A stretch of DNA of 64,000 nt. Origin: Dehalococcoidia bacterium. Its GTDB lineage: Bacteria > Chloroflexota > Dehalococcoidia > Lucifugimonadales > UBA1123. Location: positions 1,580,753 through 1,644,752 of the forward strand of contig OZ220693.1 in the NCBI GenBank assembly GCA_965116415.1, in the 5' to 3' direction. A program made the translations under genes and the position numbers. The notes under the pieces were generated by a model, which was given only the letters and a program-made list of their open reading frames with translations, made no database searches and was not told where the DNA came from. Shown piece by piece: positions 1 through 41,643 of this stretch (the first letter of the stretch is position 1; every line of letters begins with the position of its first letter).

Positions 1-1385
1 GATCATCTGTCGTTAGTGGCACACCTTATGCGCAGGGCCGGGTTCGGAGCCACCCGGGACGAACTTGAACGTCGTCTCGCCGCGGGCTACGAAGCGACGG
101 TCGAGGACCTGTTACACCCAGAGTCGTACGAACCGCTCGACTTCTACGACTTCCTTCGCTACCTGCCCCTGCAGTGGAAGCCGGACACCCTGAACGGCAT
201 GGGACAGTCCGGATGGGTGTGGCGCATGATCAACACGAAGGCGCCGCTCCAGGAGAAGATGTGCCTGTTCTGGCACCAGATATTCGCCACCGGAGTCTCG
301 AAGGTCGATCACTACGACGAGGTCGTGGACATGATCGACGTCTTCAGAGAGAAGGGACTCGGTAAGTACCGCGAACTGCTGCTGGACATTGCACGCAATC
401 CCGCGATGCTGTACTGGCTCGACAACCACGAGAACCACGCCACAGCGGTCAACGAGAACTGGGGTCGCGAGCTTCTCGAGCTGTTCACCATGGGCGTCGG
501 CAACTACACCGAGGAAGACGTGTACGAGTGTTCCCGCGCCTTCACAGGCTGGACGATCAGCCCGAAGCTGCCCAGGTATCACATGGGACGGTGGGACTGG
601 CACTTCGAGTACCGTCCCGACGACCACGACGAGGGCGAGAAGACTTTCCTCGGCCATACTGGAAACTTCAACGGTGAGGACATCATCGACATCGCGCTTG
701 CACAGCCCGCGACGGCGAGGTTCATCGCACGTCATCTTTACGGCTTCTTCGTTGCTGACGAGGTGCAGGTACCAGCGTGGCAGGTGACGCCTCCGCGCGA
801 TCCTGAGGCCATCGAGGTCATCGCCAATGCGCTGACCGAATCAGACTTCGATATGCGCCATACGCTGCGGGTGCTGTTCAACTCCGACTTCTTCAAGGAG
901 ACCCGCTTCACGAAGGTCAAGAACCCGACTGAGGTCGTCGTCAGCGCGCTCAGGATGGTCGGCGGCGCTGAGCTCCCAAGCCTGGACGTGTACGACTACT
1001 GCAACCAGATCACGTACATGGGGCAGGACCTGCTCAATCCGCCAAGCGTGGAGGGATGGCACTACGGCGCAGAGTGGATCAACAGCAGCTCGCTGATGAA
1101 GCGCGCCAACTTCGTTGCCGACATTGTCGGCGAGACCGACCCGGTGTCCGCGACATCATCGAGCGGGTTAGAGCGTCCGGCGCGTCGCCGGAATCGGCTG
1201 TGGACGCCTGTATCGACCTGCTTGGGCCGGTCGCCCTGAATGACGAGACCCGTTTGGAGCTGATCGAGCACGCCCAGGTCTTCGGCGAGTTCGCCTGGGA
1301 CGAGGAGAACGTAGCCAGATCGGCCAAGCGGGTCGCAGAGCTGCTCCAGCTAATAGTTGCCACTAGGGAGTACCAGTTTGCGTGA
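1..1385 (+). pseudogene. DUF1800-family protein, 5' end cut by the window edge, reading frame broken near 1141-1145
   Basis: ORF 16..1239 is collinear with the intact paralog 27786..29189 up to MKRANFVAD. The conserved C-terminus (IIERVRASGASPESAVD...LLQLIVATREYQFA) continues in another frame (ORF 1056..1385). Comparison with 28900-28990 suggests loss of 1 nt in a CCCGG(G)T run. Codons 1-15 still match the paralog, so the start lies left of the window. Confidence 0.75.
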
Positions 1386-1462
1386 GTGACAGGGTTCACG
1401 GCCCAGCTGATCGATCTCTTCGGCCCCCATGCAAGCTAGCGCTTCCAGAAGGTATCGACATC

Positions 1463-2473
1463 ATGCTCACCAAGAAAATTGGCAGCCGCGTTTACGACTA
1501 TAGCTACGTCATCGGCGACCCGAACGAGACGCTGGAGCCGATAGCCCTCGCCGTCGGTGAAGAGAACGAACTGTTCGCGATCATCAAGGGCATCCTCGAG
1601 CTCTCACCCAATGTCACCCGGCTCTGGCTGGGCGACGGGCCCGGCGACGAGCGGATCGTCAACGTGATCGGCGACGGATACGGTGATGGTCCGGGGCAGT
1701 TCATCTGGCCGACAGGGGTTGCGCTGGACTCGGAGCGCAACGTCTACGTCACCGACGCCTGGACGGATCGCGTGTCCGTGTTCACCGTGGAGGGAGACTT
1801 CATCCGCTCGTTCGGGTCGCCCGGAGACGGCGACGGGCAGTTCAGGAGGCCCTCGGGTATCGCAATCGACGCGAACGACAACGTTCTGGTCGTCGACGCG
1901 CTCAACGACCGGGTTCAGAAGCTGACGCGAGACGGCAGCTTCATCTCGCAGTGGGGCTCCACAGGGTCAGGTGACGGAGAGTTCCTGTCGCCCTGGGGCA
2001 TCACGACCGACGTCTACGGCTATGTGTACGTCGCCGACTACAAGAACCACCGTATTCAGAAGTTCGACGGCGACGGCGGGTTCGTGTTCGCGCTTGGGAG
2101 TCGCGGCAGCGGCGACTACGAGTTCGATCACCCGTCGGACGTGGCAGTCGACCCGGACGGGGACATCTACGTCTGCGACTGGGCGAACAGCCGGGTGCAG
2201 GCGTACGACTCCGACGGGAAGTACATCACCACGTTTATCGGCGACGCCTACGAGCTGTCGAAGTGGCAGACGGATTTCGTGCGGGCCAATCCAGACGTTC
2301 ACAAGGCGCGGAGGCGGGTGTACTCGCTGGATCCCGAGAAGCGCTTCGCGCTGCCGATGGGAGTCGCGTTCGACCCGCACGGGTCGAGGCTGATGGTCGC
2401 AGACACTCAACGTTGGCGAATCCAGATCTACAACAAGGTTCTGGACTACAGCGAGCCGCAGTTCAATATTTGA
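1463..2473 (+). CDS. NHL-repeat six-bladed beta-propeller protein (paralog of 29374..30381)
   Basis: Repeated NHL-type units (GQFxxPxGIAxDxxxNVYVxDxxNxRVQKF). The ATG at 1463 (MLTKKIGSRVYDYSYV) aligns with the paralog start MMLTKIVGERVYDFSHV. Both share the C-terminus QRWRIQIYNK..PQFNI. Confidence 0.85.
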   Translation: MLTKKIGSRVYDYSYVIGDPNETLEPIALAVGEENELFAIIKGILELSPNVTRLWLGDGPGDERIVNVIGDGYGDGPGQFIWPTGVALDSERNVYVTDAWTDRVSVFTVEGDFIRSFGSPGDGDGQFRRPSGIAIDANDNVLVVDALNDRVQKLTRDGSFISQWGSTGSGDGEFLSPWGITTDVYGYVYVADYKNHRIQKFDGDGGFVFALGSRGSGDYEFDHPSDVAVDPDGDIYVCDWANSRVQAYDSDGKYITTFIGDAYELSKWQTDFVRANPDVHKARRRVYSLDPEKRFALPMGVAFDPHGSRLMVADTQRWRIQIYNKVLDYSEPQFNI

Positions 2474-12133: not shown

Positions 12134-12643
12134 TCAGGAATCCCCAGCGGCAGAGGCCTGGCGCTGTCTGCTCTCCCGGTGTTTGATGAACGCCATGGCC
12201 TGGCGGACGCCCATGCGGCCGATTGGGCCTGAGGCGTACATGGAGCCGAAGACGACTCCGCGGCTTACGAGGAACTCCATGGGCTGGAGGTAGCGTCCGT
12301 GGGTCTTGTCCTCGGTCCACCACGGGGCGAGGGCGGCCACGGTCTCTTCAGTGACACCGTAGGCAATCGGGAAGGTGAGCCCCTCTTCCTCAGCCATTTT
12401 CGCGGCTGTATCGCGGTCCTCGACGGTCGCGCCGATTACGGTCAATCCCATCTCGTCGAGTTCTTCGAGGCTTCTCTGGTAGGTGGCCAACTGCCGCCTG
12501 CAGTACGGTCACCACTCGCCCCTGTAGAACAGCAGCGCGAGGTAGCGGCTGGGGACCTCACTGGGCAGCGTCATGGTCGAGCCGTCTATGAGGTCGAGTT
12601 TGATCTTGGGGAAGCGGTCTCCCTGTACCAGCTTTTCGGTCAT
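12134..12643 (-). CDS. Peroxiredoxin/redoxin-fold selenoprotein (UxxC), in-frame UGA at 12509-12511
   Basis: ATG at 12643 follows AGGAGG. Translation: MTEKLVQGDRFPKIKLDLIDGSTMTLPSEVPSRYLALLFYRGEW-UGA-PYCRRQLATYQRS, running in frame into ORF 12134..12490. The UGA occupies the first Cys of the WCPxC redox motif. Confidence 0.8.
12490..12504 (-). other. Candidate SECIS-like hairpin ACUGC-AGGCG-GCAGU just downstream of the UGA
   Basis: 5-bp stem and a GG-containing loop, starting 5 nt after the UGA. It is short, so only suggestive. Confidence 0.35.
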
Positions 12644-22920: not shown

Positions 22921-22984
22921 ACGTTCGTGGTGAGCCTGTCGAACCATGAACGGGCAGCCCTTCGACAAGCTCAGGGCGAACGGC
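22921..22984. repeat. Family B element in palindromic form (two inverted half-sites)
   Basis: CGTTCGTGGTGAGCCTGTCGAACC at 22922-22945 is the imperfect reverse complement of CCCTTCGACAAGCTCAGGGCGAACGG at 22958-22983. Confidence 0.75.
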
Positions 22985-23029
22985 ATCGGGCGATTGATCG
23001 AAAGATCCTGGATCGGCTTAGAGGATCGC

Positions 23030-24253
23030 ATGCAAGAGTATGAAGTCACCGGAATAGACCCCAGAACGCTAGGTCGCCGAATCCAGGAAGCGCGTAAGGC
23101 GAGGGGGCTCACCCAGCAGGATGTTGCGGAAGCGCTTTCCCTGGCGCGAACGACGGTTACGGCCCTGGAGAAGGGTGAGCGCCGGGTCCGTCCTGACGAG
23201 ATAATAAGTATGGCTGGTCTCTTCGGCAGGTCGGTGAGTGATCTAGTCGGCTCCAGAGAACCGATGTCGGACTTTGCCGTTCAGTTTCGCACTGCCATAG
23301 GCGCAGTTGGGTCGCATCAGGCTCAAGAGGATATGGCTCAGGCTGTCCAGGAGTTCCAGAGACTGTGTGAAGATTATCTGTACCTTGAGAACCTGAATAG
23401 GTCGGCTCTCCATCAGAACTACATCTCAGAGTATCCGATTAACGTCGCCTCACCTGAAGATGCGGCAGAAGACGTGGCGTCGGCAGAACGCAACAGATTA
23501 GGCCTTGGAGACGGACCGGTCCTGAACCTAAGAGAAGTGCTTGAGAACGACGTCGCCACGCGCGTCTTCTCCATGAAGCTGCCGTCGCGAGTCGCTGGAA
23601 TCTTCTCCTACAGCCAGGAGCTTGGGGGCTGCATCGCAGTAAACGCTCAACACCCGGAGGAACGACGCCGGTGGTCGATGGCCCACGAATATGGGCACTT
23701 CCTGACTAGCCGCTTCCAATCGGAGATTTCGATACTGGGTGCGTACAGGCGTGTTCCGGCAAAGGAGAGATTCGCGGACTCTTTCGCTGGCTGCTTCCTC
23801 ATGCCAGCGGCGGGTCTGAGACGCAGATTCAATGAGATTTCTCGCGCAGCGGCTGGTGAGATGACCGTGGCGGACGTATGCCGAATCGCCCACTACTACT
23901 TCGTATCGATCGAGGCGGTTACCCTACGCCTGGAGGAGTTGAGACTCCTTCCGGGAGGGACATGGGACAGGCTCAAGGACAGAGGATTCAGGGTACGAGA
24001 GGCCCAGGAACAGTTGGGACTGTCGCCCCGCAGCGACAGCGATCAGTTACTCCCGTTACGCTACCAATTCCTAGCTATCCGTTCTTATGAGGAGGGCCAG
24101 CTCACTGAGGGAGAGCTTGCTCGGCTTCTGAGGACTGACCGAGTATCGGCCAGACGGACTGTACAGAGGCTGACCCACACGCCACACCTTCGCGATGAAG
24201 GAGACCTTCAATCGCTGTCCATAGACCTCGCCGGCAGCCTACTTGGGCAGTGA
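23030..24253 (+). CDS. Fused XRE-HTH / ImmA-IrrE (COG2856, DUF955) zinc metallopeptidase
   Basis: HTH LTQQDVAEALSLARTTVTALEKGER, then HExxH as SMAHEYGHF. The start is taken at MQEYEV (23030) because 22946-23029 is REP sequence. Confidence 0.85.
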   Translation: MQEYEVTGIDPRTLGRRIQEARKARGLTQQDVAEALSLARTTVTALEKGERRVRPDEIISMAGLFGRSVSDLVGSREPMSDFAVQFRTAIGAVGSHQAQEDMAQAVQEFQRLCEDYLYLENLNRSALHQNYISEYPINVASPEDAAEDVASAERNRLGLGDGPVLNLREVLENDVATRVFSMKLPSRVAGIFSYSQELGGCIAVNAQHPEERRRWSMAHEYGHFLTSRFQSEISILGAYRRVPAKERFADSFAGCFLMPAAGLRRRFNEISRAAAGEMTVADVCRIAHYYFVSIEAVTLRLEELRLLPGGTWDRLKDRGFRVREAQEQLGLSPRSDSDQLLPLRYQFLAIRSYEEGQLTEGELARLLRTDRVSARRTVQRLTHTPHLRDEGDLQSLSIDLAGSLLGQ

Positions 24254-27019: not shown

Positions 27020-27547
27020 ATGGAGACCTACATGACGACTGACATTCCTCACGAGGTACATGGTGACGAACTTCCAAAGCGGGTGACGCGACGCACGGTC
27101 GCGGTTGACTGCGAGCACGTCGAGAAGATGCTGCACAAGGGGACTCGCGAACAGTTCGTGATCTACTGCGACGAGCCGGAGAGGATGGGCGGAGAGGACG
27201 CCTATCCCCCACCGCTGACCTACATCACCTCCGGCATCGGGTTTTGACTGCTTACCCAGTTGAAGCGGTACGCTACAATGAGAAAACTCCCGATCACCAA
27301 GGCCCGAGTCCACGTCGAGATGGACTACTACCTGTCTGGCTCAGTGCTTGCCGGAACCGTCACCAGCGGGGTTACAGAGGTGCGCTCCGAGTTCGAGGTG
27401 ACCTCCGACGCTCCTGAGGAAGAGGTAGCCTACGTCATCCGGCTCGCGAAGCAGGGCTGCTTCGCCGAGAGGCTTGTCGAGACCGCCGTGCCCATCAAGA
27501 GCACGCTCAAGCTCAACGGCAAAGAGGCGACAAGCCGCCTGGAGTGA
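27020..27547 (+). CDS. OsmC-family selenoprotein, in-frame UGA at 27245-27247
   Basis: ORFs 27020..27247 and 27260..27547 are in the same frame. The joined reading is AYPPPLTYITSGIGF-UGA-LLTQLKRYA. That is the position of the first conserved OsmC/Ohr Cys, and the second conserved Cys is present (AKQGCFAERL). Confidence 0.75.
27250..27273 (+). other. Candidate SECIS-like stem-loop after the OsmC UGA
   Basis: Hand-folded pairs: G50-C73, C51-G72, U53-A70, A54-U69, C55-G68, C56-G67, C57-G65, with loop AGUUGAA. Imperfect and close to the UGA. Confidence 0.3.
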
Positions 27548-27785: not shown

Positions 27786-29189
27786 ATGCACATGTCCAGC
27801 AACGAACTATCACATATGGCGCACCTCATGCGGAGGGCCGGATTTGGGGCCACGAGGGATGAGCTCGAGCGTCGCGTCGCCGCGGGGTACGAGGCGACCG
27901 TCGAGGACCTGCTCCATCCGGAGAACCAGGAGCCGGTGGACATCTACCAGTTCCTGCGCTACTACCACTTCCAGTGGAAGCCCGGCACCCTGGGGGGCAT
28001 CGGGCAGTCCGGGTGGGTTTGGCGCATGATCAACACGAAGGCGCCGCTCCAGGAGAAGATGTGCCTGTTCTGGCACCAGATCTTCGCGACAGGCGTCTCG
28101 AAGGTCGATCACTACGACGAGATTACCGACATGATCGACATCTTCCGGGAGAAGGGACTGGGGAAGTACAGGGACCTGCTGCTGGACGTCTCCAGGAATC
28201 CAGCGATGCTGTACTGGCTGGACAACCACGAGAACCACGCCACGGCGATCAACGAGAACTGGGGCCGCGAGCTTCTCGAGCTGTTCACGATGGGAGTCGG
28301 CAACTACACGGAAGAGGACGTGTACGAGTGCTCCCGCGCCTTCACAGGCTGGACGATGACGCCCAAGCTGCCGAGGTTCCACATGGGACGCTGGGACTGG
28401 TACTTCGAGTACCGGCCTGACGACCACGACGAGGGTGAGAAGAACTTCCTGGGCCACACCGGCAACTTCAACGGCGAGGACATCATAGACATCGTGCTCG
28501 CCCATCCTGCCACGGCGAGGTTCATCGCGCGGCACCTGTACAACTTCTTCGTCGCCGACGAGGTACAGGTACCGGCATGGGAGCATACGCCGCCACGGGA
28601 TCCAGAGGCCATAGAGATCATCGCCAACGCGCTCACAGAATCGGACTTCGACATACGCCATACGCTGCGCGTGCTGTTCAACTCCGACTTCTTCAAGGAT
28701 GCCCAGTTCACCAAGGTCAAGAACCCGACCGAGGTGGTCATCGGCACGATGAGAATGGTCGGCGGCGGCGAGCTAGCCGGTCCCGAGATATTCGAGTACT
28801 CCAACCACATCACCTACATGGGACAGGAGCTGCTCAATCCGCCGAGCGTGGAGGGATGGCACTCTGGTGTGGAGTGGATCAACAGCGGCTCGCTGATGAA
28901 GCGCGCCAACTTCGTAGCCGACAGGGTCAGCGAGTTAGACCGCCCAGGAGTCAGCGCGATCATCGAGCGAGTGAAGTCCTCAGGCGCGTCGCCGGAGTCG
29001 GCCGTCGACACGTGCCTCGACCTTCTCGGGCCGGTCGTCGTCAAGGACGAGACCCGCGACGAGCTGATAGAGCACGCGTCGGCGCACGGCGATCTCGTCT
29101 GGGATGAGAACAATGAGGCGAAATCGGCACGGCGCGTGGCGGAGCTGCTTCAGCTTATCGTGGCCACTAGGGAGTACCAGTTCGCGTAA
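27786..29189 (+). CDS. DUF1800-family protein (intact paralog)
   Basis: AHLMRRAGFGAT, FWHQIFATG, NENWGRELLELFTMGVGNYTEEDV and GWT motifs; ends REYQFA. Confidence 0.85.
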   Translation: MHMSSNELSHMAHLMRRAGFGATRDELERRVAAGYEATVEDLLHPENQEPVDIYQFLRYYHFQWKPGTLGGIGQSGWVWRMINTKAPLQEKMCLFWHQIFATGVSKVDHYDEITDMIDIFREKGLGKYRDLLLDVSRNPAMLYWLDNHENHATAINENWGRELLELFTMGVGNYTEEDVYECSRAFTGWTMTPKLPRFHMGRWDWYFEYRPDDHDEGEKNFLGHTGNFNGEDIIDIVLAHPATARFIARHLYNFFVADEVQVPAWEHTPPRDPEAIEIIANALTESDFDIRHTLRVLFNSDFFKDAQFTKVKNPTEVVIGTMRMVGGGELAGPEIFEYSNHITYMGQELLNPPSVEGWHSGVEWINSGSLMKRANFVADRVSELDRPGVSAIIERVKSSGASPESAVDTCLDLLGPVVVKDETRDELIEHASAHGDLVWDENNEAKSARRVAELLQLIVATREYQFA

Positions 29190-29373: not shown

Positions 29374-30381
29374 ATGATGCTAACGAAGATAGTTGGAGAA
29401 CGAGTCTACGACTTCAGCCACGTGGTGGGCGGTCGCGACCAGGTTATGGGGCCGCTGGCGCTGGCGTTCGGCCGGGACAACGAGATGTATGCCGTCGTGT
29501 CTGCCCTTGGCGGCGGACGCGGAATAACGAAGTACACGGTCGGGCTCTACCCGGGCGAGGAAGAGCTGGTCCAGCGCATCGGGGAGTCCGGCGAAGGTCC
29601 GGGACAGCTGATGTGGACCTCTGGCATCGCGCTCGACTCGGACTACAACATCTACGTCACAGATGCCATGACCGATCGGATATCTGTGTTCTCGGAGGGC
29701 GGCGACTTCATCCGCTCATTCGGTTCATCTGGAGACGGCGAGGGCCAGTTCGGAAGGCCGTCGGGCATCACAGTCGACCAGGACGACAACCTGCTGGTCG
29801 TCGACACCCTCAACCACCGGGTGCAGAAGCTCGACCGCGATGGCCGCTACCTGTCCGAGTGGGGCAGCGAAGGGTCGGCTCCCGGCCAGTTCAGGTCTCC
29901 CTGGGGCATCACTACGGACGCCGACGGCTGCATCTACGTCGCCGATCACCTGAACCATCGCATCCAGAAGTTCGACGCGGATGCCGGCTTCATGTTCGAG
30001 CTCGGCAGTCACGGCTCGGGCGACTACGAGTTCGATCACCCGTCGGATGTCGCCATAGACCCGGACGGGGACATCTACGTGTGCGACTGGGCCAACCACA
30101 GGGTCCAGGCATACACCGCCGACGGTGAATACGTCACGACGTTCATCGGCGACGCTCAGGAGCTGTCGAAGTGGCAGTTGGAGTACGTCCGCTCCAACCC
30201 AGACGTGTACAAGGCGCGACGCCGGGTCTACACGCTGGAGCCGGAATGGCGCTTCGCCCTGCCGTCAGCGGTCGCGTTCGACAGTCGCAACTCGAGGCTG
30301 ATGGTGGCCGACACCCAACGCTGGCGCATCCAGATCTACAACAAGCTCCACGACTACGCCGACCCGCAGTTTAATATTTGA
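29374..30381 (+). CDS. NHL-repeat six-bladed beta-propeller protein (paralog of 1463..2473)
   Basis: Same repeat architecture and C-terminus as the first copy. Confidence 0.85.
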   Translation: MMLTKIVGERVYDFSHVVGGRDQVMGPLALAFGRDNEMYAVVSALGGGRGITKYTVGLYPGEEELVQRIGESGEGPGQLMWTSGIALDSDYNIYVTDAMTDRISVFSEGGDFIRSFGSSGDGEGQFGRPSGITVDQDDNLLVVDTLNHRVQKLDRDGRYLSEWGSEGSAPGQFRSPWGITTDADGCIYVADHLNHRIQKFDADAGFMFELGSHGSGDYEFDHPSDVAIDPDGDIYVCDWANHRVQAYTADGEYVTTFIGDAQELSKWQLEYVRSNPDVYKARRRVYTLEPEWRFALPSAVAFDSRNSRLMVADTQRWRIQIYNKLHDYADPQFNI

Positions 30382-30401: not shown

Positions 30402-33400
30402 CTAGTACCTCACTGATCGGAGGATGTGCCGGTCAGTATTCAGGCCTGTGACACCGATGAATCCCATGTATCCGTTAAACGGGGTAAATGCCTCGATGGC
30501 ATGGTCTAAGACCAACGTCCTCTCCATGGCTGCCTCAGCATTCGACAGATAGACATTTACCCGCCCACCTTCGCTGAACTCTATCTCTGCATCAAAGGTC
30601 CCTGAATTCCTAAGTGGCACTTTTAGATTTCTGGTCGCCAGATGAGCAATGTCCAACTCTTCACTGCCTGCACCCAACTCTGTAAGTGAAACGAAATTGC
30701 TCGAAGGGTCGTCAACTGGGAAGTACCAATCGGGAGGCTGCCCTGCTGAGTTCTTGCCAGTGTCGAAGGCGACAAGGAATCCATCGAGAGGACGGGACGC
30801 CCAAGTTCCTCCGCTGTCCAGACTTGGGTCGATACTGTCGAATTCGGGCAAGGTTCTAAGAAGCACGAACCCTAAACCATCAGCTCCATTTCCACCGCCG
30901 ATTTCAAATGAGAAATCTACTCGCAACCCGCTCGTGCTGACGGGTTGCCGATTCAACAGAATACCTAGCTGGATCTTGCGTGCAGGGGTAAGCTCAACTA
31001 CTTCCTCAGATTGCATGTGGCTGGCAGAACCGAAGAGAAGCCAGCGGTCAGCGTCTAGTGGACCACTAAAGTCCTCGTCGACTAACTGACTTGATCCTCC
31101 TTGCTGGGTCGGAGTTGGAGACGCAACAGGCTGATTCGGTGTGCCCACAGGGATGCTTACAGAGTCTACGAACCAACCTTGCTGGTCAGTCACTGATCCG
31201 GCCTTTGGCTGACGCCAACACGGGTCGTAAGCTTGCTCGCACAACCAGCCACGGACCTGTATGGGGAACTTGCCTGCCTGCTTCGGTGTGATACGCAGCA
31301 CCAGGGTCCTGTCATCAGACTGAGACCACGAGGGATCGTCAGACTCCACCAGCAGGTAGTCTGCCGGGAACCGCTCGTTGTCCACCCTGTGGTAGATCAT
31401 CGCGTCCGGCTGGTGGAACGTGACGTTCGACAGCCCAGAGGTGTAGTCGATCTTGTCCACATCGGCGACTCCTGAGGAGTGCGCGTCAGTAGAGCCGCCG
31501 GGGTCGGTAATTGCAGGGAACGACACTGATATGCCGCCGTGCTCACCCGCCTCTTTAACGTCGTACATGCGGACGGTGAGAGTGAAACTCTCGCCCGGCT
31601 CGATTGTCGCCGCGGAGGTCTGCCATTCGAGCCTGAACGGCGCCTCCGCAGTATTAGTCGGAGGAACGACTTTTGGCTGCGGCTCAGGTGGCGGAGTAAC
31701 AGTATCGGTTCCTGGTTCTCGGGTCGTTCCGAATAGTTGGTCTGTGATTTGCTCAGTGCACTTTGGGAGGTCATCCGTGCATAGACGAGCCCATACCTGC
31801 GGTTCATTCCACCTGGTCTCCTCATCAGGGCCGGAAATCCCTGACTCGCCCCACTTGCCCCTGTATGCTACCCACGGCGTATCTTCATCAATGAAGTACA
31901 GGTTGTAGCCGCAGTCACGAGCATCGGGTGAAGTCTCGTGGCAGAGTTGTGTGCCCTCAGACAGTTCGGGCGGGAGGAGTTTACTGCCCATGTCCGATAT
32001 TACGTCCCCGACAATAGAGACTGTCCACCTGTTGTTTTCGACACCCTCGCACATGGTGGTTATCCAGGGCGACTCCTGGATTGTCAGAGGCGTCAGGACT
32101 TGCGTCTGGTTGTCTAAATGAGGAAAGAGGGCAGGCAGCAACGATGCTCCCTGGCCCGCCGAGCTCTGATCGCACACGTTCCACGTGTTGTAGGTCGACG
32201 AATCATCGCTGGGACCGAAGTAGTTGGCGTGCTTGCCCAGTGCTACGTACGCTACGGGGTGGCCATCTTGAGTTTCAGTGTTCGGATAGGATCTGTTCTC
32301 GCTCCAGCCATGCTGGGAGTACGCCACCCTGTCCGGCGGTATGCTCTGTCCGAGAACCGTCGCTGCATCGTCCGCTGCAAACTCAAGCTGTATGAGTTCC
32401 CAGTCCGCCTCGTGCGGAAGGCACATCTCAACATCCGTCACTAAGCTGCATACTGCCTGCTGCTCTGGATTCAGTTCGTCGTAGTGATAGAAGAGGTAGT
32501 ACTGCAGATACAGCCTGCCTTCAACGCCGTCGATGTCTCCGCCATCACGGATGGTCCAGTACACCGTCGATGGATGGAGTGTAGAGTCCTCTATGTTGTC
32601 GGGGACGTCCAGGTAATGGTTTTCGTCGTAGGTGTCGCTGGCAAGTTCATCCAGGCCGGCAATGTCTCCACGTGGGACGATCGTCGCGTCGTTGCCATCC
32701 ATTACGCGGGCCTTGGTCACGAACCCCTCAACGCCCCTGGGCAGGAACCGCTCGTCATGGTGCATACGCAAAACAGGAGCGTACATTTGCGCTAGGTCGC
32801 AGGCCGCCTGCAAGTCCGCGTCGGAGTCCCTCTGTGTGCATCTGTCTTTCTGGTGGAGCGAGAGAAACTCAGTCATATCGTTTGGCGGCTGTACGGACAG
32901 TAATTCTCCGGCTAACCTGTGAACTTCAGGGGCAAGCCAGGCGGCCAGCCGGTGGCCCCCAAATGCCGGTTGAAGAAACATCGACTCATGAAGAGGTACA
33001 CCCACTCGCAGTACGCATTCGGCGTTCTCCCAAGCGTAATCGTCGATGTCTCTGGCGACACTAAAATCGTTGCTCTCGTCAATGTCCAGACTGGCGCTGC
33101 TCGACTCCAGTCTTTTCGCAACACCACTATCGGGGTCATCGGTAACGAACTCCACGTACATGCTGTCCGTGACAGAGTGGTTGGTGACGTAGGCACTTAT
33201 GGTGTCGTCGTACGGTTCTTCCGTCGAACCTATGTGACAGTGCTCGATCTTCGCATCGTCAGAGGTGTAGCTGAGAGTGAGGACATTCCTGACGATGGTC
33301 GAGAACCAGCTCAGATCCGACACCTCGACCCTGATCTCGCTCCTGGACTCATCTACCTCTCCCTCCAGCACTTCCCAGCCCTCCAGGTCTTCGTCCCAGT

Positions 33401-33836
33401 GCAGCGCCAGAACGTCTTCCGCGGTGGTCCCGACCTGCGGCTCGTACGGGATGTGTAGGGTGACGGGCATTGCGAGCTCGGCCTGACCGATTGAGATGTC
33501 GAATACCTTGCCAAGCTGCACACCGGTGGGTACATCCGCCTGGGGCGATTCCACTACAGAGATGGATGCTGTGACAGACTCTTCGACAGCGCCGGCCGGG
33601 ATCTCAATGCGGGCGCCACTCTCATGTTCGAGCGTGCCGGACTCTCCGACGGGAATACTCAGGGAGACTGGCTTCGGATCAGCAGTCGGGACATCTTTCT
33701 TCACCACAGGCCGTATCGGCAATCGAGGGGGCTCCTGTGAGGGCTGTCCTGAGGTCGCGTTCAGCAGCAGGTAGGCTCCAATGGCAACCGTGATGACTAT
33801 CACTACGACTGTGACGATCTGCGGAAGGTTGTTCAT
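30402..33836 (-). CDS. Large membrane-anchored surface protein with Vps62-like central region and C-terminal L-type-lectin-like domain
   Basis: N-terminal TM IVTVVVIVITVAIGAYLL. Central region YLQYYLFYHYDE...PHEADWELIQLEF. C-terminal GGNGADGLGFVLL and GFLVAFDTGKNS resemble legume-lectin motifs. Confidence 0.6.
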   Translation of the reverse strand: MNNLPQIVTVVVIVITVAIGAYLLLNATSGQPSQEPPRLPIRPVVKKDVPTADPKPVSLSIPVGESGTLEHESGARIEIPAGAVEESVTASISVVESPQADVPTGVQLGKVFDISIGQAELAMPVTLHIPYEPQVGTTAEDVLALHWDEDLEGWEVLEGEVDESRSEIRVEVSDLSWFSTIVRNVLTLSYTSDDAKIEHCHIGSTEEPYDDTISAYVTNHSVTDSMYVEFVTDDPDSGVAKRLESSSASLDIDESNDFSVARDIDDYAWENAECVLRVGVPLHESMFLQPAFGGHRLAAWLAPEVHRLAGELLSVQPPNDMTEFLSLHQKDRCTQRDSDADLQAACDLAQMYAPVLRMHHDERFLPRGVEGFVTKARVMDGNDATIVPRGDIAGLDELASDTYDENHYLDVPDNIEDSTLHPSTVYWTIRDGGDIDGVEGRLYLQYYLFYHYDELNPEQQAVCSLVTDVEMCLPHEADWELIQLEFAADDAATVLGQSIPPDRVAYSQHGWSENRSYPNTETQDGHPVAYVALGKHANYFGPSDDSSTYNTWNVCDQSSAGQGASLLPALFPHLDNQTQVLTPLTIQESPWITTMCEGVENNRWTVSIVGDVISDMGSKLLPPELSEGTQLCHETSPDARDCGYNLYFIDEDTPWVAYRGKWGESGISGPDEETRWNEPQVWARLCTDDLPKCTEQITDQLFGTTREPGTDTVTPPPEPQPKVVPPTNTAEAPFRLEWQTSAATIEPGESFTLTVRMYDVKEAGEHGGISVSFPAITDPGGSTDAHSSGVADVDKIDYTSGLSNVTFHQPDAMIYHRVDNERFPADYLLVESDDPSWSQSDDRTLVLRITPKQAGKFPIQVRGWLCEQAYDPCWRQPKAGSVTDQQGWFVDSVSIPVGTPNQPVASPTPTQQGGSSQLVDEDFSGPLDADRWLLFGSASHMQSEEVVELTPARKIQLGILLNRQPVSTSGLRVDFSFEIGGGNGADGLGFVLLRTLPEFDSIDPSLDSGGTWASRPLDGFLVAFDTGKNSAGQPPDWYFPVDDPSSNFVSLTELGAGSEELDIAHLATRNLKVPLRNSGTFDAEIEFSEGGRVNVYLSNAEAAMERTLVLDHAIEAFTPFNGYMGFIGVTGLNTDRHILRSVRY

Positions 33837-34210: not shown

Positions 34211-34768
34211 TCACCCCTTGGCTTTCATTAGCCAGGTCTGGTCTCTGGCTGGGCTTGCGAGCCAGGTCTCTACGTCGGACTGGCGCTCGTTGGGGACTTC
34301 GACTCCCAGGCCGTCGGCGAGGCGGGTCATGAAGTTGAACGTGCAGGTGATTAGCACGACCGACAGGATCTGCTCGTCGGTCAGACCGTGCTCCCTGAGC
34401 CTTAAGACGTCGGACTCTTCCATGGCGGCTGGCTCGCGCGTGAGCTTGGTGGCGAAGTCCAGCATGGCCCTCGTCACCGGGTCCAGGTCGGCGTTCCTGT
34501 AGTCGTGCATGACGTGGCTCGCCAACTCGGTATCGTCCGAGACGTTACGGAGAAACTCCCCGTGGGCCATCGTTCAAAATCGGCACTCGTTCTGAACGGA
34601 CACCGCGGTCGCAATCGCCTCTTCCTGCGTTCGAGTGAGCGCAGACGATCCGAACGTTATGGCGTTGTTCAGGTCGTTGACGGCCTTCATCGCGCTGGGG
34701 TTGATCGACATGACGTTGATGACATTCGCCCAGTGCAGCCGTTCGTCAGCTTCGCGTATCCATGACAT
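34211..34768 (-). CDS. AhpD/carboxymuconolactone-decarboxylase-like selenoprotein (CxxU), in-frame UGA at 34574-34576
   Basis: ORFs 34574..34768 and 34211..34570 are in frame. The joined reading is VSVQNECRF-UGA-TMAHGEF, which reproduces the family motif CxxCxxxH with the second Cys replaced by UGA. Confidence 0.8.
34547..34563 (-). other. Candidate SECIS-like hairpin ACGGGG-AGUUU-CUCCGU
   Basis: 6-bp stem including one G-U pair, starting 10 nt after the UGA. Confidence 0.35.
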
Positions 34769-34910
34769 GATGGGCCCCTCGCTATTCTCCGGTTGGGTGG
34801 GTCAGGTGATGATCGTTTGTTGGGGACACTATACACAAGAAGGCTGATGTCGCCGGTGAAAGGGGGAGGGTTAGAGTGGGAGTAGAAAGGTGGTACAGTG
34901 TCTTTGCTGA

Positions 34911-35915
34911 ATGACCTCCGTGAGCAAGGAGATGGACATGGCGGGCGCACAGACTGAACGCGGCTTCTACCGCAACTACTTCCGCGAGATCGACGTCCTC
35001 CACAGCCTGCAGTCCACGCCTGAGGAGCGCGACTGGCTGCTGACCACCCCGAAGGACAACGTTGAGCCGTCCGACATCGTGCTGTATCTCGGCTGCAACG
35101 TCATGCGCACCACCCATCTCGTGCGCACAGTCATGGACGTCTTCAGGCTTCTGGACGTGGATTTCACCGCCGTCGGCGGCGCGGCCTACTGCTGCGGCAT
35201 CCAGCACCACCAGCGCGGCGACGTAGCGTCGGCCCACTCCTTCGCCCAGACCACCGCCTCCAACTTCCGCAAGTTCCAGCCGGAGCAGGTGGTGATGTGG
35301 TGTCCATCGTGCATCTTCTTCTACGACGACATCATGGACATGCGCGAGGACTTCGCCTTCCAGCACGTCACCGAGTACCTGGTCCAGAATCTCGATAAAT
35401 TGGCGCTCCGGCCCCAGCCCGAGACCACGGTCGCTCTCCACTACCACACCGGACGCCCGCAGTCCGACGCCGAAGCCCGGAGCGCCCTGACCCTTCTCCG
35501 CGCGCTTCCTGGCGTTAGCGTCGTAGACATCGGCTGCGACGAGCGCTTTGGCCGCCACTGCACCCCCGCCGTCCGCCAGCAGCTAGGCCCCGAGACGTGG
35601 GACGAAATGTCAGGCCAGTGGGTCCAGAATGCGGTGGACGCCGGAGCCGACACCTACGCCACGCTCTACCACGGCTGCCAGCGTCACATGTGCAGCCTCG
35701 AAGCCGAGTACCCCGTCCGGGTCGAGCACTACCTCACCCTCGTGGGTCGCGCCCTCGGCATCGAGTACGAAGACCTCTACAAGAAGCACACCCTCCTCGG
35801 CAACACCGACGCCATCCTGGCCGAGACCGCCCCATGCGCCGTAGCCAACAACATCCCCATAGAGGAGGCGAGGGAGGTCATCGGCCGTGCGTTCCCGGCG
35901 CGGGAGGGGGCGTAG
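34911..35915 (+). CDS. CCG-domain (HdrB/GlpC-like) cysteine-rich Fe-S oxidoreductase subunit
   Basis: Motifs LYLGCNV, AYCCG, MWCPSC and TLYHGCQRH. The start may be 34911 or 34932. Confidence 0.7.
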   Translation: MTSVSKEMDMAGAQTERGFYRNYFREIDVLHSLQSTPEERDWLLTTPKDNVEPSDIVLYLGCNVMRTTHLVRTVMDVFRLLDVDFTAVGGAAYCCGIQHHQRGDVASAHSFAQTTASNFRKFQPEQVVMWCPSCIFFYDDIMDMREDFAFQHVTEYLVQNLDKLALRPQPETTVALHYHTGRPQSDAEARSALTLLRALPGVSVVDIGCDERFGRHCTPAVRQQLGPETWDEMSGQWVQNAVDAGADTYATLYHGCQRHMCSLEAEYPVRVEHYLTLVGRALGIEYEDLYKKHTLLGNTDAILAETAPCAVANNIPIEEAREVIGRAFPAREGA

Positions 35916-39274: not shown

Positions 39275-40570
39275 CTAAGTTGCTTCTGCCATTTCCACCA
39301 CAGCGTCCTCCACTCTCAGTACGGCAAGCTGGACCTGCCTAAGGTCATGGACAACGGCGGCAATCGAGTCAATATCAGTGTTCCCTATAGCCGTATCAAG
39401 TTCATTGAACTTCGCACCAAAATCTCGGAGGGCTAGAACAATCTCGTGGAGTCTCACTCCTAGCGAGTATCTCCTATTTAGGTGAAATTCCCTGCTTAGT
39501 GTCGATAAGGCTCTCATCTTCTCATCGATTTGCTCAAACCTCAGCTTGAGAGCCTCACGAATTGAACGTAGATCTGCGAGAGGAATATTGGGGCCGATCG
39601 GCTCAATTATCTGAAGTGTCTCGTTGACGAACTGCTTGATTCCTATCGACCCGAGCTTGGAGACAAACTCCCGCCGCAAGGGCCCTACCACGTCGTCGGG
39701 AAGGCTGGTGATCCTGCGAATCTGGAATAATCTGTTGGCGTCAACTTCTCCGAACAGTTCAAATTCGATGCCAATCAGCTGCTTCGCCGGAAAACGCATC
39801 ACATCCCGCTTGGTTTCACCTGGCTGAAGAGTGCCTATTTCTGTCCTGTATCGCCCCGCAGCTTCTATGACGACGGAGTTGAACCACACGTCTGGCCAGT
39901 CCGCACGATCCGGTGCGGTGTTATGAACCGTAAGCGTGACCTCTGCGTTCCCATCTGTACCCTCATCCGGCATCCTCACTGTCTTCTCCAAGACCAAGCA
40001 GGACTGTAATATCCGCCACAGATCGGATGTCGGAGTAGGAGCCTCCTGAACCTCTACACCGCGCTCGGGATGGTCGAACTCGTCCATGGGGTCTTCTTCC
40101 TCCACACTACTGGAATCTCCTTCCAACTCATTACTCATCGTCTCGATTTCCAAGGCCTCATCGCAGCTCAGAGCCGTGAGGATACGTCTCATTTGCTCTG
40201 CTGCCCTTCTCGCACGTGCCAAAGAAATGTTGTCTAGGTGTGCCCAGTCATTCCGTATGGCTGTCAACCGCCGGAGTTCCTCAGATGTCCTTACCGTGTC
40301 CCTAAAAGCATCTGAAAACACGTTGGAGTTTCGGCCAATGATGCGCATGAAGTGAGGAGCGTCCAAAAGGAGGTGCCGATCACGAGCTGGGTCTCTTTCG
40401 AAGTGTGGCTTCAGAGCTTCCAGTTGGGCTTCCGTTAAGGATCTCTCCACTCCATTCTGCCACCAGTCATCCCCATGTTCGCCGACCAAGCGTTCGTAAA
40501 TCGCTCTCCTGACTCCTGTTATGTAGAGAACATGGCATCGCGTGAAGAACATATAGACATCCAAGTTCAA
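39275..40570 (-). CDS. Swt1-like HEPN domain protein with an uncharacterised C-terminal two-thirds
   Basis: N-terminal GDDWWQNGV...LTAIRNDWAHL (RNxxAH fits Rx4H). It continues with an acidic linker, a beta-rich middle and a helical C-terminus. Lower GC. Confidence 0.6.
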   Translation of the reverse strand: MNLDVYMFFTRCHVLYITGVRRAIYERLVGEHGDDWWQNGVERSLTEAQLEALKPHFERDPARDRHLLLDAPHFMRIIGRNSNVFSDAFRDTVRTSEELRRLTAIRNDWAHLDNISLARARRAAEQMRRILTALSCDEALEIETMSNELEGDSSSVEEEDPMDEFDHPERGVEVQEAPTPTSDLWRILQSCLVLEKTVRMPDEGTDGNAEVTLTVHNTAPDRADWPDVWFNSVVIEAAGRYRTEIGTLQPGETKRDVMRFPAKQLIGIEFELFGEVDANRLFQIRRITSLPDDVVGPLRREFVSKLGSIGIKQFVNETLQIIEPIGPNIPLADLRSIREALKLRFEQIDEKMRALSTLSREFHLNRRYSLGVRLHEIVLALRDFGAKFNELDTAIGNTDIDSIAAVVHDLRQVQLAVLRVEDAVVEMAEAT

Positions 40571-40773
40571 GGAGACACCTCTTGCTAGCTGGTCACACTA
40601 ATTTGGTGCTGGGCCATAGTGTATACCTACTTCAGGATCGCTCAACCGTGGTTGCCGGCTCTCCAACAGCTTAAGGGATGTAACGGCTAAGAAGAACTCG
40701 GCCAAATGCCACAGTTCCCCATCTCTATGTCACTGGGACTTGCGCATGACGGCCTGAAATATTGGCTGTCAGT

Positions 40774-41643
40774 TCATCCGTCGCTCTCCTGTGTGGCTCG
40801 CCACAGGTAGCTCGCAAACGAAGCGCAGACACCAAGCATAAACACTGCCTCGTCTCGTCCCGAGGGTGAAGCCGAGTGGTCCAACAAGGCGTGGCGGATT
40901 CCCTCCTCATCCGATGTGTATCCGTAGAGTTTACTGAAAGCATCCTTTAGCGCCGGATGAATGTGCTTTCTTTCTTCGAGCGACTTCAAAGCTGGTGCTA
41001 ATGTACTGGCTGATTCTGGAGCCAGCGTACGCGCTACGGATTCAACAGAGTGAATGCTCTCTCTAATTGACCCTGGCCAGTCGCCTTGATTTATCAGCTC
41101 TGTCGCTTTCCGGAGATGTGTTCTCGCTCCATCAAGGCCCGTCTCACTTAACGTGTGCATAGCGTCCGTGATTGCTTCACCTTCCTGCCAAGTGGCCATG
41201 GGGAAAATGGTAGGAGGCCCATTCGTGTCCACGCAGTAAGCCAACTGACAGTATTCAAATAGGGCTTTTACTTCGACGGTGAATTCAGATGGGCATTTTG
41301 GATGACGCATGATGATCTGTAGTACATCGAATACCTTGTTGAATTCTAAGTCCTCTAGTATTTGATACCTGTAGATGCCAAGGAATTCATCTATTGTGCC
41401 TCTGAATTCCTCTAGTGGTATCTCTAGAAACTCCCGATGCAGTTCCGCTGCTATTGCCCTCCAATTAACTCCTAAGTGGCCACCTCCAGAGGATCTACGT
41501 AAATATATATACAGCAAATCCCATAGCCTGTGACGAGCATCAGAACTAAGTTCTTCAAGTGCTAGCGGACCAGGTAGACCCTCGTAGCCTTGGGCTTGCG
41601 AGAATGTGAGGTTTCTGGGATCAAGTCTCTCGTTATCTTGCAC
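40774..41643 (-). CDS. AbiJ-like protein (AbiJ N-terminal domain 4 plus HEPN-like C-terminus)
   Basis: N-terminal LTFSQAQGYEGLPGPLALEELSSDARHRLWDLLY. C-terminal SIRESIHSVESVAR...LYGYTSDEEGIRHAL. Confidence 0.55.
   Translation of the reverse strand: MQDNERLDPRNLTFSQAQGYEGLPGPLALEELSSDARHRLWDLLYIYLRRSSGGGHLGVNWRAIAAELHREFLEIPLEEFRGTIDEFLGIYRYQILEDLEFNKVFDVLQIIMRHPKCPSEFTVEVKALFEYCQLAYCVDTNGPPTIFPMATWQEGEAITDAMHTLSETGLDGARTHLRKATELINQGDWPGSIRESIHSVESVARTLAPESASTLAPALKSLEERKHIHPALKDAFSKLYGYTSDEEGIRHALLDHSASPSGRDEAVFMLGVCASFASYLWRATQESDG

Follow-up and report, generated by a model that had tools for sequence, protein, structure and literature searches.

An AhpD-like protein (COG2128) with the motif CXXU, in which U stands for selenocysteine (Sec), was introduced as a new family of selenoproteins, with 27 sequences from the Sargasso Sea (Zhang, Fomenko and Gladyshev, 2005; PMC1088965). 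The Global Ocean Sampling data contained 299 Sec sequences and 902 cysteine (Cys) homologues of "AhpD-like 1" (COG2128, CxxU), which ranked there as the fourth most abundant family (Zhang and Gladyshev, 2008; PMC2398784). The AhpD-like family is also included in a 2026 review (PMC13188914) and is the worked browsing example of BSepDB (PMC13326102). The gene described here lies on the minus strand, at 34768..34211, of a 64,000-nucleotide stretch of DNA from a Dehalococcoidia bacterium (assembly GCA_965116415.1, contig OZ220693.1, positions 1,580,753 to 1,644,752), and this whole stretch, whose numbering is used throughout, is referred to below as the window. The region 34768..34211 is a single gene with an in-frame TGA, which very probably encodes a 185-residue AhpD-like, or peroxidase-related (COG2128, TIGR01926), selenoprotein.

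When compared with the AhpD-like (COG2128/TIGR01926) selenoproteins, the window gene shares the hidden Markov model family, the CxxU motif, the presence of one Sec per protein, and a selenocysteine insertion sequence (SECIS) element with a G in its apical loop, located directly 3'. No tested feature differs from the published proteins, although the window copy comes from Dehalococcoidia and the original reports were based on anonymous marine reads. The window gene is therefore regarded as a member of the already described family, because every defining feature that could be tested is present and none of them is unusual.

The nearest characterized homologue is DR1765 (PDB 6k40, E = 2e-20), which has the same domain as the window protein, as do 3c1l (Mlr4105), 2pfx, 2prr, and 2oyo, with approximately 150 alignable residues. 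These DR1765-type structures have CxxCxxxH at the column of the window gene's motif, with Cys where the window gene has UGA, and the proteins differ further in carrying about 20 extra N-terminal residues and in having moderate identity to the window protein. AhpD of Mycobacterium tuberculosis (Rv2429) has an identical Glu-12-Cys-x-x-Cys-x-x-x-His spacing, yet its homology to the window protein is very distant, and the match is limited to the AhpD core-domain model TIGR00778 (32.5 bits, cutoff 27.8). The mycobacterial gene adjoins ahpC and its product is reduced by lipoylated DlaT/SucB, whereas the window gene has no adjacent ahpC and no conserved neighbor. The linkage to ahpC that is the criterion for a canonical AhpD is absent here, since the neighboring genes encode a CCG-domain protein and a 1144-residue protein, and a peroxiredoxin-like (Prx-like) gene is located approximately 22 kb away. 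The residue after arginine (Arg) in the CxxU motif is phenylalanine (Phe) or tyrosine (Tyr) in the window family, as in PA0269, whereas it is His132 in M. tuberculosis AhpD. A second selenoprotein group, the "alkylhydroperoxidase-related (seleno)protein" of model NF041238 (the Sargasso 'hypothetical protein 1'), has an AhpD-related fold and shares CxxU-T (CFYUT, compared with CRFUT here). Membership in this group, named AhpD_rel_CFYUT, was rejected, as the score was 61.4 bits against a cutoff of 175 and only positions 175-342 of 357 were matched.

A Single Reading Frame Across an Internal TGA

The original prediction described two open reading frames (ORFs) in one frame, parted by TGA-ACG, as one AhpD/CMD-like gene with CxxU in place of CxxC, and the coordinates given for both ORFs are exact. 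The sequence and the list of ORFs define one 185-codon frame on the minus strand (34768..34211), which contains 64 sense codons from the ATG at 34768, the in-frame TGA (34576..34574), ACG (34573..34571), an ATG at 34570 followed by 118 codons, and the terminal TGA (34213..34211). Its two ORF halves comprise 64 codons (34768..34577) and 119 codons (34570..34211), and the peptide flanking the internal TGA reads ...AIATAVSVQNECRF-*-TMAHGEFLRNVS..., which gives C62-x-x-U65-x-x-x-H69. A junction of two ORFs at a TGA is not in itself above chance, with 176 of them in this GC-rich window under loose length criteria. Because the junction and the hairpin that follows it are each unremarkable alone, the case rests on the homology that crosses the junction and on the conservation of TGA and hairpin in 80/80 orthologous loci.

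With U modeled as Cys at the TGA, the protein reaches 128.1 bits with TIGR01926 ("peroxidase-related enzyme"), whose curated cutoff is 81.8; residues 9-158 correspond to profile positions 24-175 of 178, and the match runs unbroken across the internal TGA. The joined protein also matches the Pfam carboxymuconolactone decarboxylase (CMD) domain, and the proposed relationship to CMD peroxidase-related proteins is thereby borne out. The best matches among solved structures are 3c1l, 2pfx, 2prr, 6k40, and 2oyo (E 2e-25 to 4e-19), all of them Cys-containing and of the TIGR01926 type. Three structure alignments place the TGA at the second Cys of CxxC, the motifs being NHCYYCLTAHG (3c1l), NKCFYCLVAHG (2pfx), and NQCLYCVVAHG (2prr) against NECRF-U-TMAHG in the window protein, and distant representatives with at most 44% identity to the query orthologue P0001 also have CxxC at this column. 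The substitution of CxxU for CxxC, which the original prediction had put forward, agrees with both sets of alignments.

The codons of the predicted active site can be located individually. Cys62 (TGC, 34583..34585) is the first position of CxxU, in the sequence as in the structure alignments, and the in-frame TGA (34574..34576), present in all 81 genes compared below, is the predicted Sec65 codon at the second position of the CxxC-type motif, a position held by Cys in solved and distant homologues. The histidine (His) of CxxUxxxH, His69, is encoded by CAC at 34562..34564, and the last two bases of this codon open the SECIS stem. Glutamate (Glu) 50, encoded at 34619..34621, lies 12 residues before Cys62 and corresponds to the AhpD proton-relay Glu. 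The resulting spacing Glu50-12-Cys62-x-x-Sec65-x-x-x-His69 matches the proton-relay sets Glu118/Cys130/Cys133/His137 of M. tuberculosis AhpD and Glu36/Cys48/Cys51/His55 of PA0269 (PMC3141380).

An identity as gamma-carboxymuconolactone decarboxylase (PcaC) was considered, since the Pfam CMD model matches, but this model spans the whole superfamily, and no pca genes were found among the scanned ORFs of the window. The combination of redox residues (CxxU, His, and Glu) favors the AhpD branch. At the 5' end of the gene, a Shine-Dalgarno-like GAGGGG (34775..34780, minus strand) can be read from the sequence 6 nt 5' of the ATG at 34768..34766, and the orthologues have N-termini of the form M-[SAPT]-W-I at the matching start site.

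Conservation of the TGA Among Orthologues

One genome per GTDB species was scanned, which yielded more than 566 related stretches, and the best 80 loci were used, giving 81 genes with the window gene. The 80 loci come from metagenome-assembled genomes of Dehalococcoidia/Chloroflexota and from one entry labeled only "uncultured bacterium" (L023), and their identity to the window protein is 59-90%. TGA is found at the Sec column in 80/80 orthologous loci (81/81 genes), and the redox motif C-x-x-C/U-x-x-x-H is kept in all 81. Amino acid identity among the 81 genes is 64.5% before the TGA and 65.7% after it, and the mismatch by codon position is 0.28/0.22/0.52 upstream and 0.27/0.21/0.51 downstream. 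Both halves therefore evolve as coding sequence, because change is dominated by the third position on either side of the TGA. A protein search returned 474 relatives, and of the best 120 clusters approximately 110 represent only the C-terminal part, about 117-129 residues long, from the methionine just after the TGA onward; gene callers therefore truncate the whole clade at one place.

The same arrangement could be read as a pseudogene or an assembly error, in which a CMD-family gene carries a nonsense change from TGC or TGT to TGA or a sequencing error. Such an origin is suggested by the single base that separates TGA from the Cys codons, by rare database homologues with the one-base variants TGG, CGA, and GGA at the Sec codon, and by public gene callers, which read the locus as two ORFs. 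However, 81/81 independent genomes keep the TGA column, at identities as low as 59%, the two sides of it are conserved to the same degree and change in a coding pattern, and the hairpin is conserved with constraint at the codon level. The exact pair of ORFs recurs in several independent assemblies, which speaks against an assembly error, and a single contaminating sequence is excluded by the 59-90% identity spread of the orthologues, so that the chance of this explanation is vanishingly small.

Translation into two small proteins of 64 and 119 residues, which might assemble with each other, would require that ribosomes stop at the UGA and start again from the ATG located 3 nt further on (TGA-ACG-ATG). 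An ATG two codons past the TGA is present in the window gene and in 44/81 orthologues, and gene callers predict precisely these two products. On the other hand, 32/81 genes offer no start codon (ATG, GTG, or TTG) in the 12 codons that follow the TGA, for example those of the clades with ...CRY-U-ASSHGG and ...CRY-U-AVAHGG, and the re-initiation model therefore fails. A break at this point would also part the two catalytic residues of CxxC(U)xxxH, and a single CMD/TIGR01926 domain bridges the junction. Two separate proteins are accordingly very improbable, and a continuous selenoprotein gene is the preferred reading of the locus.

The Downstream Hairpin as a Probable Bacterial SECIS Element

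When compared with bacterial SECIS elements, of which Escherichia coli fdhF is the prototype, and with the bacterial SECIS (bSECIS) consensus, the window hairpin is likewise part of the coding sequence and follows closely 3' of the UGA, and its loop likewise starts with G-U. The fdhF element has a bulged U, whereas the window hairpin is short and perfect, without a bulge. It consists of ACGGGGA-GUU-UCUCCGU (34563..34547, minus strand), with a 7-bp stem that includes one G.U pair and a basal A-U pair and with the loop at 34556..34554, and the distance from the UGA is 10 nt to the stem and 17 nt to the loop. The original prediction had placed a 6-bp hairpin at 34547-34563; the position is correct, and the number of pairs has to be raised to seven in the window sequence, while the RNAalifold consensus keeps six.

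The published limits for bacterial SECIS elements are an apical loop of 3-9 nt, an upper stem of 4-16 bp, a UGA-to-loop distance of 16-37 nt, and a minimum free energy (MFE) of at most -7.5 kcal/mol; in addition, a G is required among the first two loop nucleotides, and the base after it is usually G or U (PMC13188914). The window hairpin lies within all of these limits, with a 3-nt GUU loop in which G is followed by U, a 7-bp stem, a spacing of 17 nt, and an MFE of -7.5 kcal/mol, and the orthologue hairpins have a median MFE of -9.2 kcal/mol. A SECIS prediction had been proposed as a check on the gene, and the comparison with the published limits is positive, with the energy on the threshold.

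Evidence also comes from comparison between species, for which 63 nt around the TGA were aligned from the 81 genes. The helix is paired in 97.9% of 567 cells, compared with 44-62% after the 3' partners have been shifted by one to three columns, and none of 500 column shuffles matched the observed pairing or covariation score. RNAalifold finds the identical helix de novo, and the apical pair varies among G-C (53), A-U (21), and C-G (2). Codon choice in the hairpin peptide H-G-[EGA]-[FL]-L-R was further compared with the remainder of the same genes. The glycine (Gly) at U+5 is encoded by GGA or GGG in 81/81 genes (background 32%), Gly at U+6 by GGG in 53/53 (18%), leucine at U+8 by CTC or CTT in 81/81 (34%), and Arg at U+9 by CGT in 74/81 (11%), while His69 is CAC in 81/81 against 76% CAC elsewhere in these genes. 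The first loop base is G in 81/81. The biased codon choice and the invariant first loop G indicate selection at the nucleotide level, as expected of an RNA element, and the structured element is conserved together with the TGA.

Further Candidate Selenoprotein Genes in the Window and Selenocysteine Use in Related Genomes

A scan of the window for in-frame TGA codons found two further candidate selenoprotein genes. The first is a Prx-like gene (12643..12134, minus strand; TGA 12511..12509) with 169 residues and the motif FYRGEW-U-PYC (UxxC), which matches the Pfam domains AhpC-TSA (8.7e-18) and Redoxin (1.8e-13) and has a stem-loop with an AGUUG loop 16 nt past the UGA. The second is an OsmC-like gene (27020..27547, plus strand; TGA 27245..27247) with 175 residues and the motif GIGF-U-LLTQ (UxxT), which matches Pfam OsmC (1.6e-13); its U is located on a conserved Cys column of PDB 3cje, and a second Cys (KQGCFAER) is also conserved. 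The fold predicted downstream of the OsmC-like TGA forms a 9-nt loop whose first two nucleotides include no G. UxxC and UxxT are published motifs for the Prx-like and OsmC-like selenoprotein families, respectively (PMC1088965).

BSepDB took only genomes with at least two of SelA, SelB, and SelD, and it lists 46 selenoproteins for "Dehalococcoidia bacterium 10f4566d-..." and 49 for UBA1141 (PMC13326102). The former is the genome of locus L037, which bears a 67%-identical orthologue of the window gene with a matching TGA. The two additional redox genes with in-frame TGA in the window and the Sec-using relative L037 are positive, indirect evidence that the host uses Sec. A literature search on SAR202 and selenocysteine turned up nothing specific.

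Relatives Without Selenocysteine

A sister clade with 46-51% identity has Gly or alanine (Ala) codons (GGA, GGG, GCC) at the Sec column, within CRY-G/A-ALTHGGF, and its hairpin is partly degraded. Members of this clade include L081 (267-830), L084 (63-1391), and L085 (914-1477), as well as the proteins P0059-P0062 and P0121-P0135. In L081 and L085, a small CMD-family gene is located directly upstream of the Gly/Ala-type gene. Since the nearest non-Sec relatives carry Gly or Ala, the classical Sec/Cys pair is seen only at 44% identity or less, which is a mild departure from the usual close pairing. If the sister clade swapped Sec for Gly/Ala, this would imply a one-Cys mechanism or a non-redox role in these proteins.

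Two singleton metagenome contigs, L082 (173-727) and L083 (581-1132), have CGA (Arg) or TGG (tryptophan, Trp) for TGA with the hairpin intact, and they are probably point mutants or sequencing errors. These variants are the only source of 'full-length' close homologues in protein databases. An interpretation of the full-length database homologues as Cys forms or as translations under an alternative code was rejected, since the DNA has TGG, CGA, and GGA variants and the Gly/Ala clade.

Evidence Against Selenocysteine Insertion and Decoding Without Selenium

Several observations weigh against the interpretation of this locus as a selenoprotein gene. The non-Sec relatives nearest to this gene carry Gly or Ala at the Sec column instead of Cys. 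The energy of the window hairpin lies exactly on the -7.5 kcal/mol threshold, and, for one sequence alone, the folding energy does not improve on dinucleotide shuffles (z +0.41 and 0.00), for which reason the hairpin was judged comparatively. Compensatory change is found in only one of the seven pairs, with the other six invariant or one-sided, and the orthologue sequences are phylogenetically related, which limits the evidence from covariation. When the entire window was scanned with Rfam at gathering thresholds, nothing matched, SECIS and tRNA-Sec models included. No selA, selB, selD, or tRNA-Sec was found within the 64-kb window; ARAGORN detected no tRNA in it, and a Pfam scan of the window ORFs of at least 300 residues that were judged likely real, which left smaller ORFs and ORFs overlapping on the other strand or frame unscanned, gave no SelA, SelB, or SelD. 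Finally, no conserved operon partner that would fix the substrate was found across the 80 loci, in which clustering of the flanking ORFs is noisy because of spurious GC-rich ORFs.

The UGA could also be read without selenium, either under an alternative code (Trp or Gly) or by near-cognate or suppressor decoding (Trp, Cys, or Arg). Some database entries do show W at the Sec column, Sec insertion is deduced here and not directly observed, and the sel genes are missing from the window. However, the terminal stops of the 81 genes are TAG (42), TGA (27), and TAA (12), TGA also ends the window gene itself and bounds many window ORFs, and a reassigned genetic code is therefore excluded because TGA is still an ordinary terminator. 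The one W entry that was checked has a genuine TGG codon. Read-through without selenium would moreover leave unexplained a conserved hairpin of the SelB type with a G-U loop at canonical spacing, and the Sec column is a catalytic Cys in homologues, while related genomes are documented Sec users. Only a slim chance is thus left for decoding without selenium, and insertion of Sec is retained as the very probable fate of this codon.

Proposed Mechanism and Function

The UGA at 34576..34574 would be recoded as Sec, with the hairpin recruiting SelB-GTP-Sec-tRNA(Sec) to the ribosome while the UGA is in the A site, and the terminal TGA, which has no such element, would be expected to terminate translation normally. 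The predicted active site consists of Glu50, Cys62-Arg-Phe-Sec65, and His69, with Sec second in the CxxC-type motif. In M. tuberculosis AhpD, Cys133 is the nucleophile toward AhpC, and Cys130 resolves. By analogy, the selenolate may attack an oxidized partner or a peroxide, the partner possibly being the sulfenic acid or disulfide of a peroxidase of the peroxiredoxin or OsmC type. Cys62 would then resolve with formation of an intramolecular selenenylsulfide, and a thiol/dithiol or lipoyl donor would re-reduce the protein. We infer Sec insertion, its dependence on SelB, the substrate, and the electron donor in this scheme, and the chemistry is modeled on that of characterized Cys homologues.

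The support for function is limited to Cys homologues. Deinococcus radiodurans that lacks DR1765 becomes sensitive to H2O2 and is complemented only when the CxxC cysteines are present; the reduction of AhpC in Mycobacterium, and of OsmC/Ohr in Corynebacterium, is carried out by AhpD (PMC8945050). On this analogy, a peroxide-detoxification relay made up entirely of selenoproteins could be imagined in marine or sponge-associated Dehalococcoidia, in which the Sec-containing AhpD-like protein (34.5 kb) would reduce the candidate Sec-peroxidases of the OsmC-like UxxT type (27.2 kb) and the Prx-like UxxC type (12.5 kb), although such a relay is rather unlikely.

Neighboring Genes

A gene divergent from the AhpD-like gene (34911..35915, plus strand) encodes a 334-residue CCG-domain protein that is HdrB/GlpC-like (Pfam CCG 1.9e-06). 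A functional link between the two genes is unlikely, because they are adjacent only in the two closest relatives (L002 and L004). Directly downstream of the AhpD-like gene is a 1144-residue ORF (30402..33836, minus strand) whose N-terminus includes a hydrophobic segment and which matches no Pfam family at E <= 1e-5; in L086 and L087, too, this gene comes next after the AhpD-like gene. Genes of the defense/toxin type are located at 39275..41643 (minus strand), with a Swt1-like HEPN domain (39275..40570) and an AbiJ N-terminal domain 4 (40774..41643, below the Pfam cutoff), and at 22946..24253 (plus strand), which encodes a protein with helix-turn-helix and IrrE/M78 peptidase domains. The window also contains a duplicated pair of genes on the plus strand, in which DUF1800 is followed by an NHL-repeat beta-propeller (16..1239 and 1382..2473; 27786..29189 and 29374..30381).

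Significance for Annotation and for Dehalococcoidia Selenoproteomes

The family, motif, Sec position, and SECIS type of this gene are all as published, and knowledge of selenoproteins is unchanged by it. In public assemblies (NCBI, ENA, and Logan; L086 and L087), the gene appears as two separate ORFs, one of 64 and one of 119 residues, neither with a recorded Pfam hit. If the UGA is read as Sec, the active site is complete again, and the main value of the finding is that it mends a systematically split annotation. The gene would add one more entry to the large selenoproteomes of Dehalococcoidia and, with the two other candidates in the window, marks this genome as that of a selenium user.

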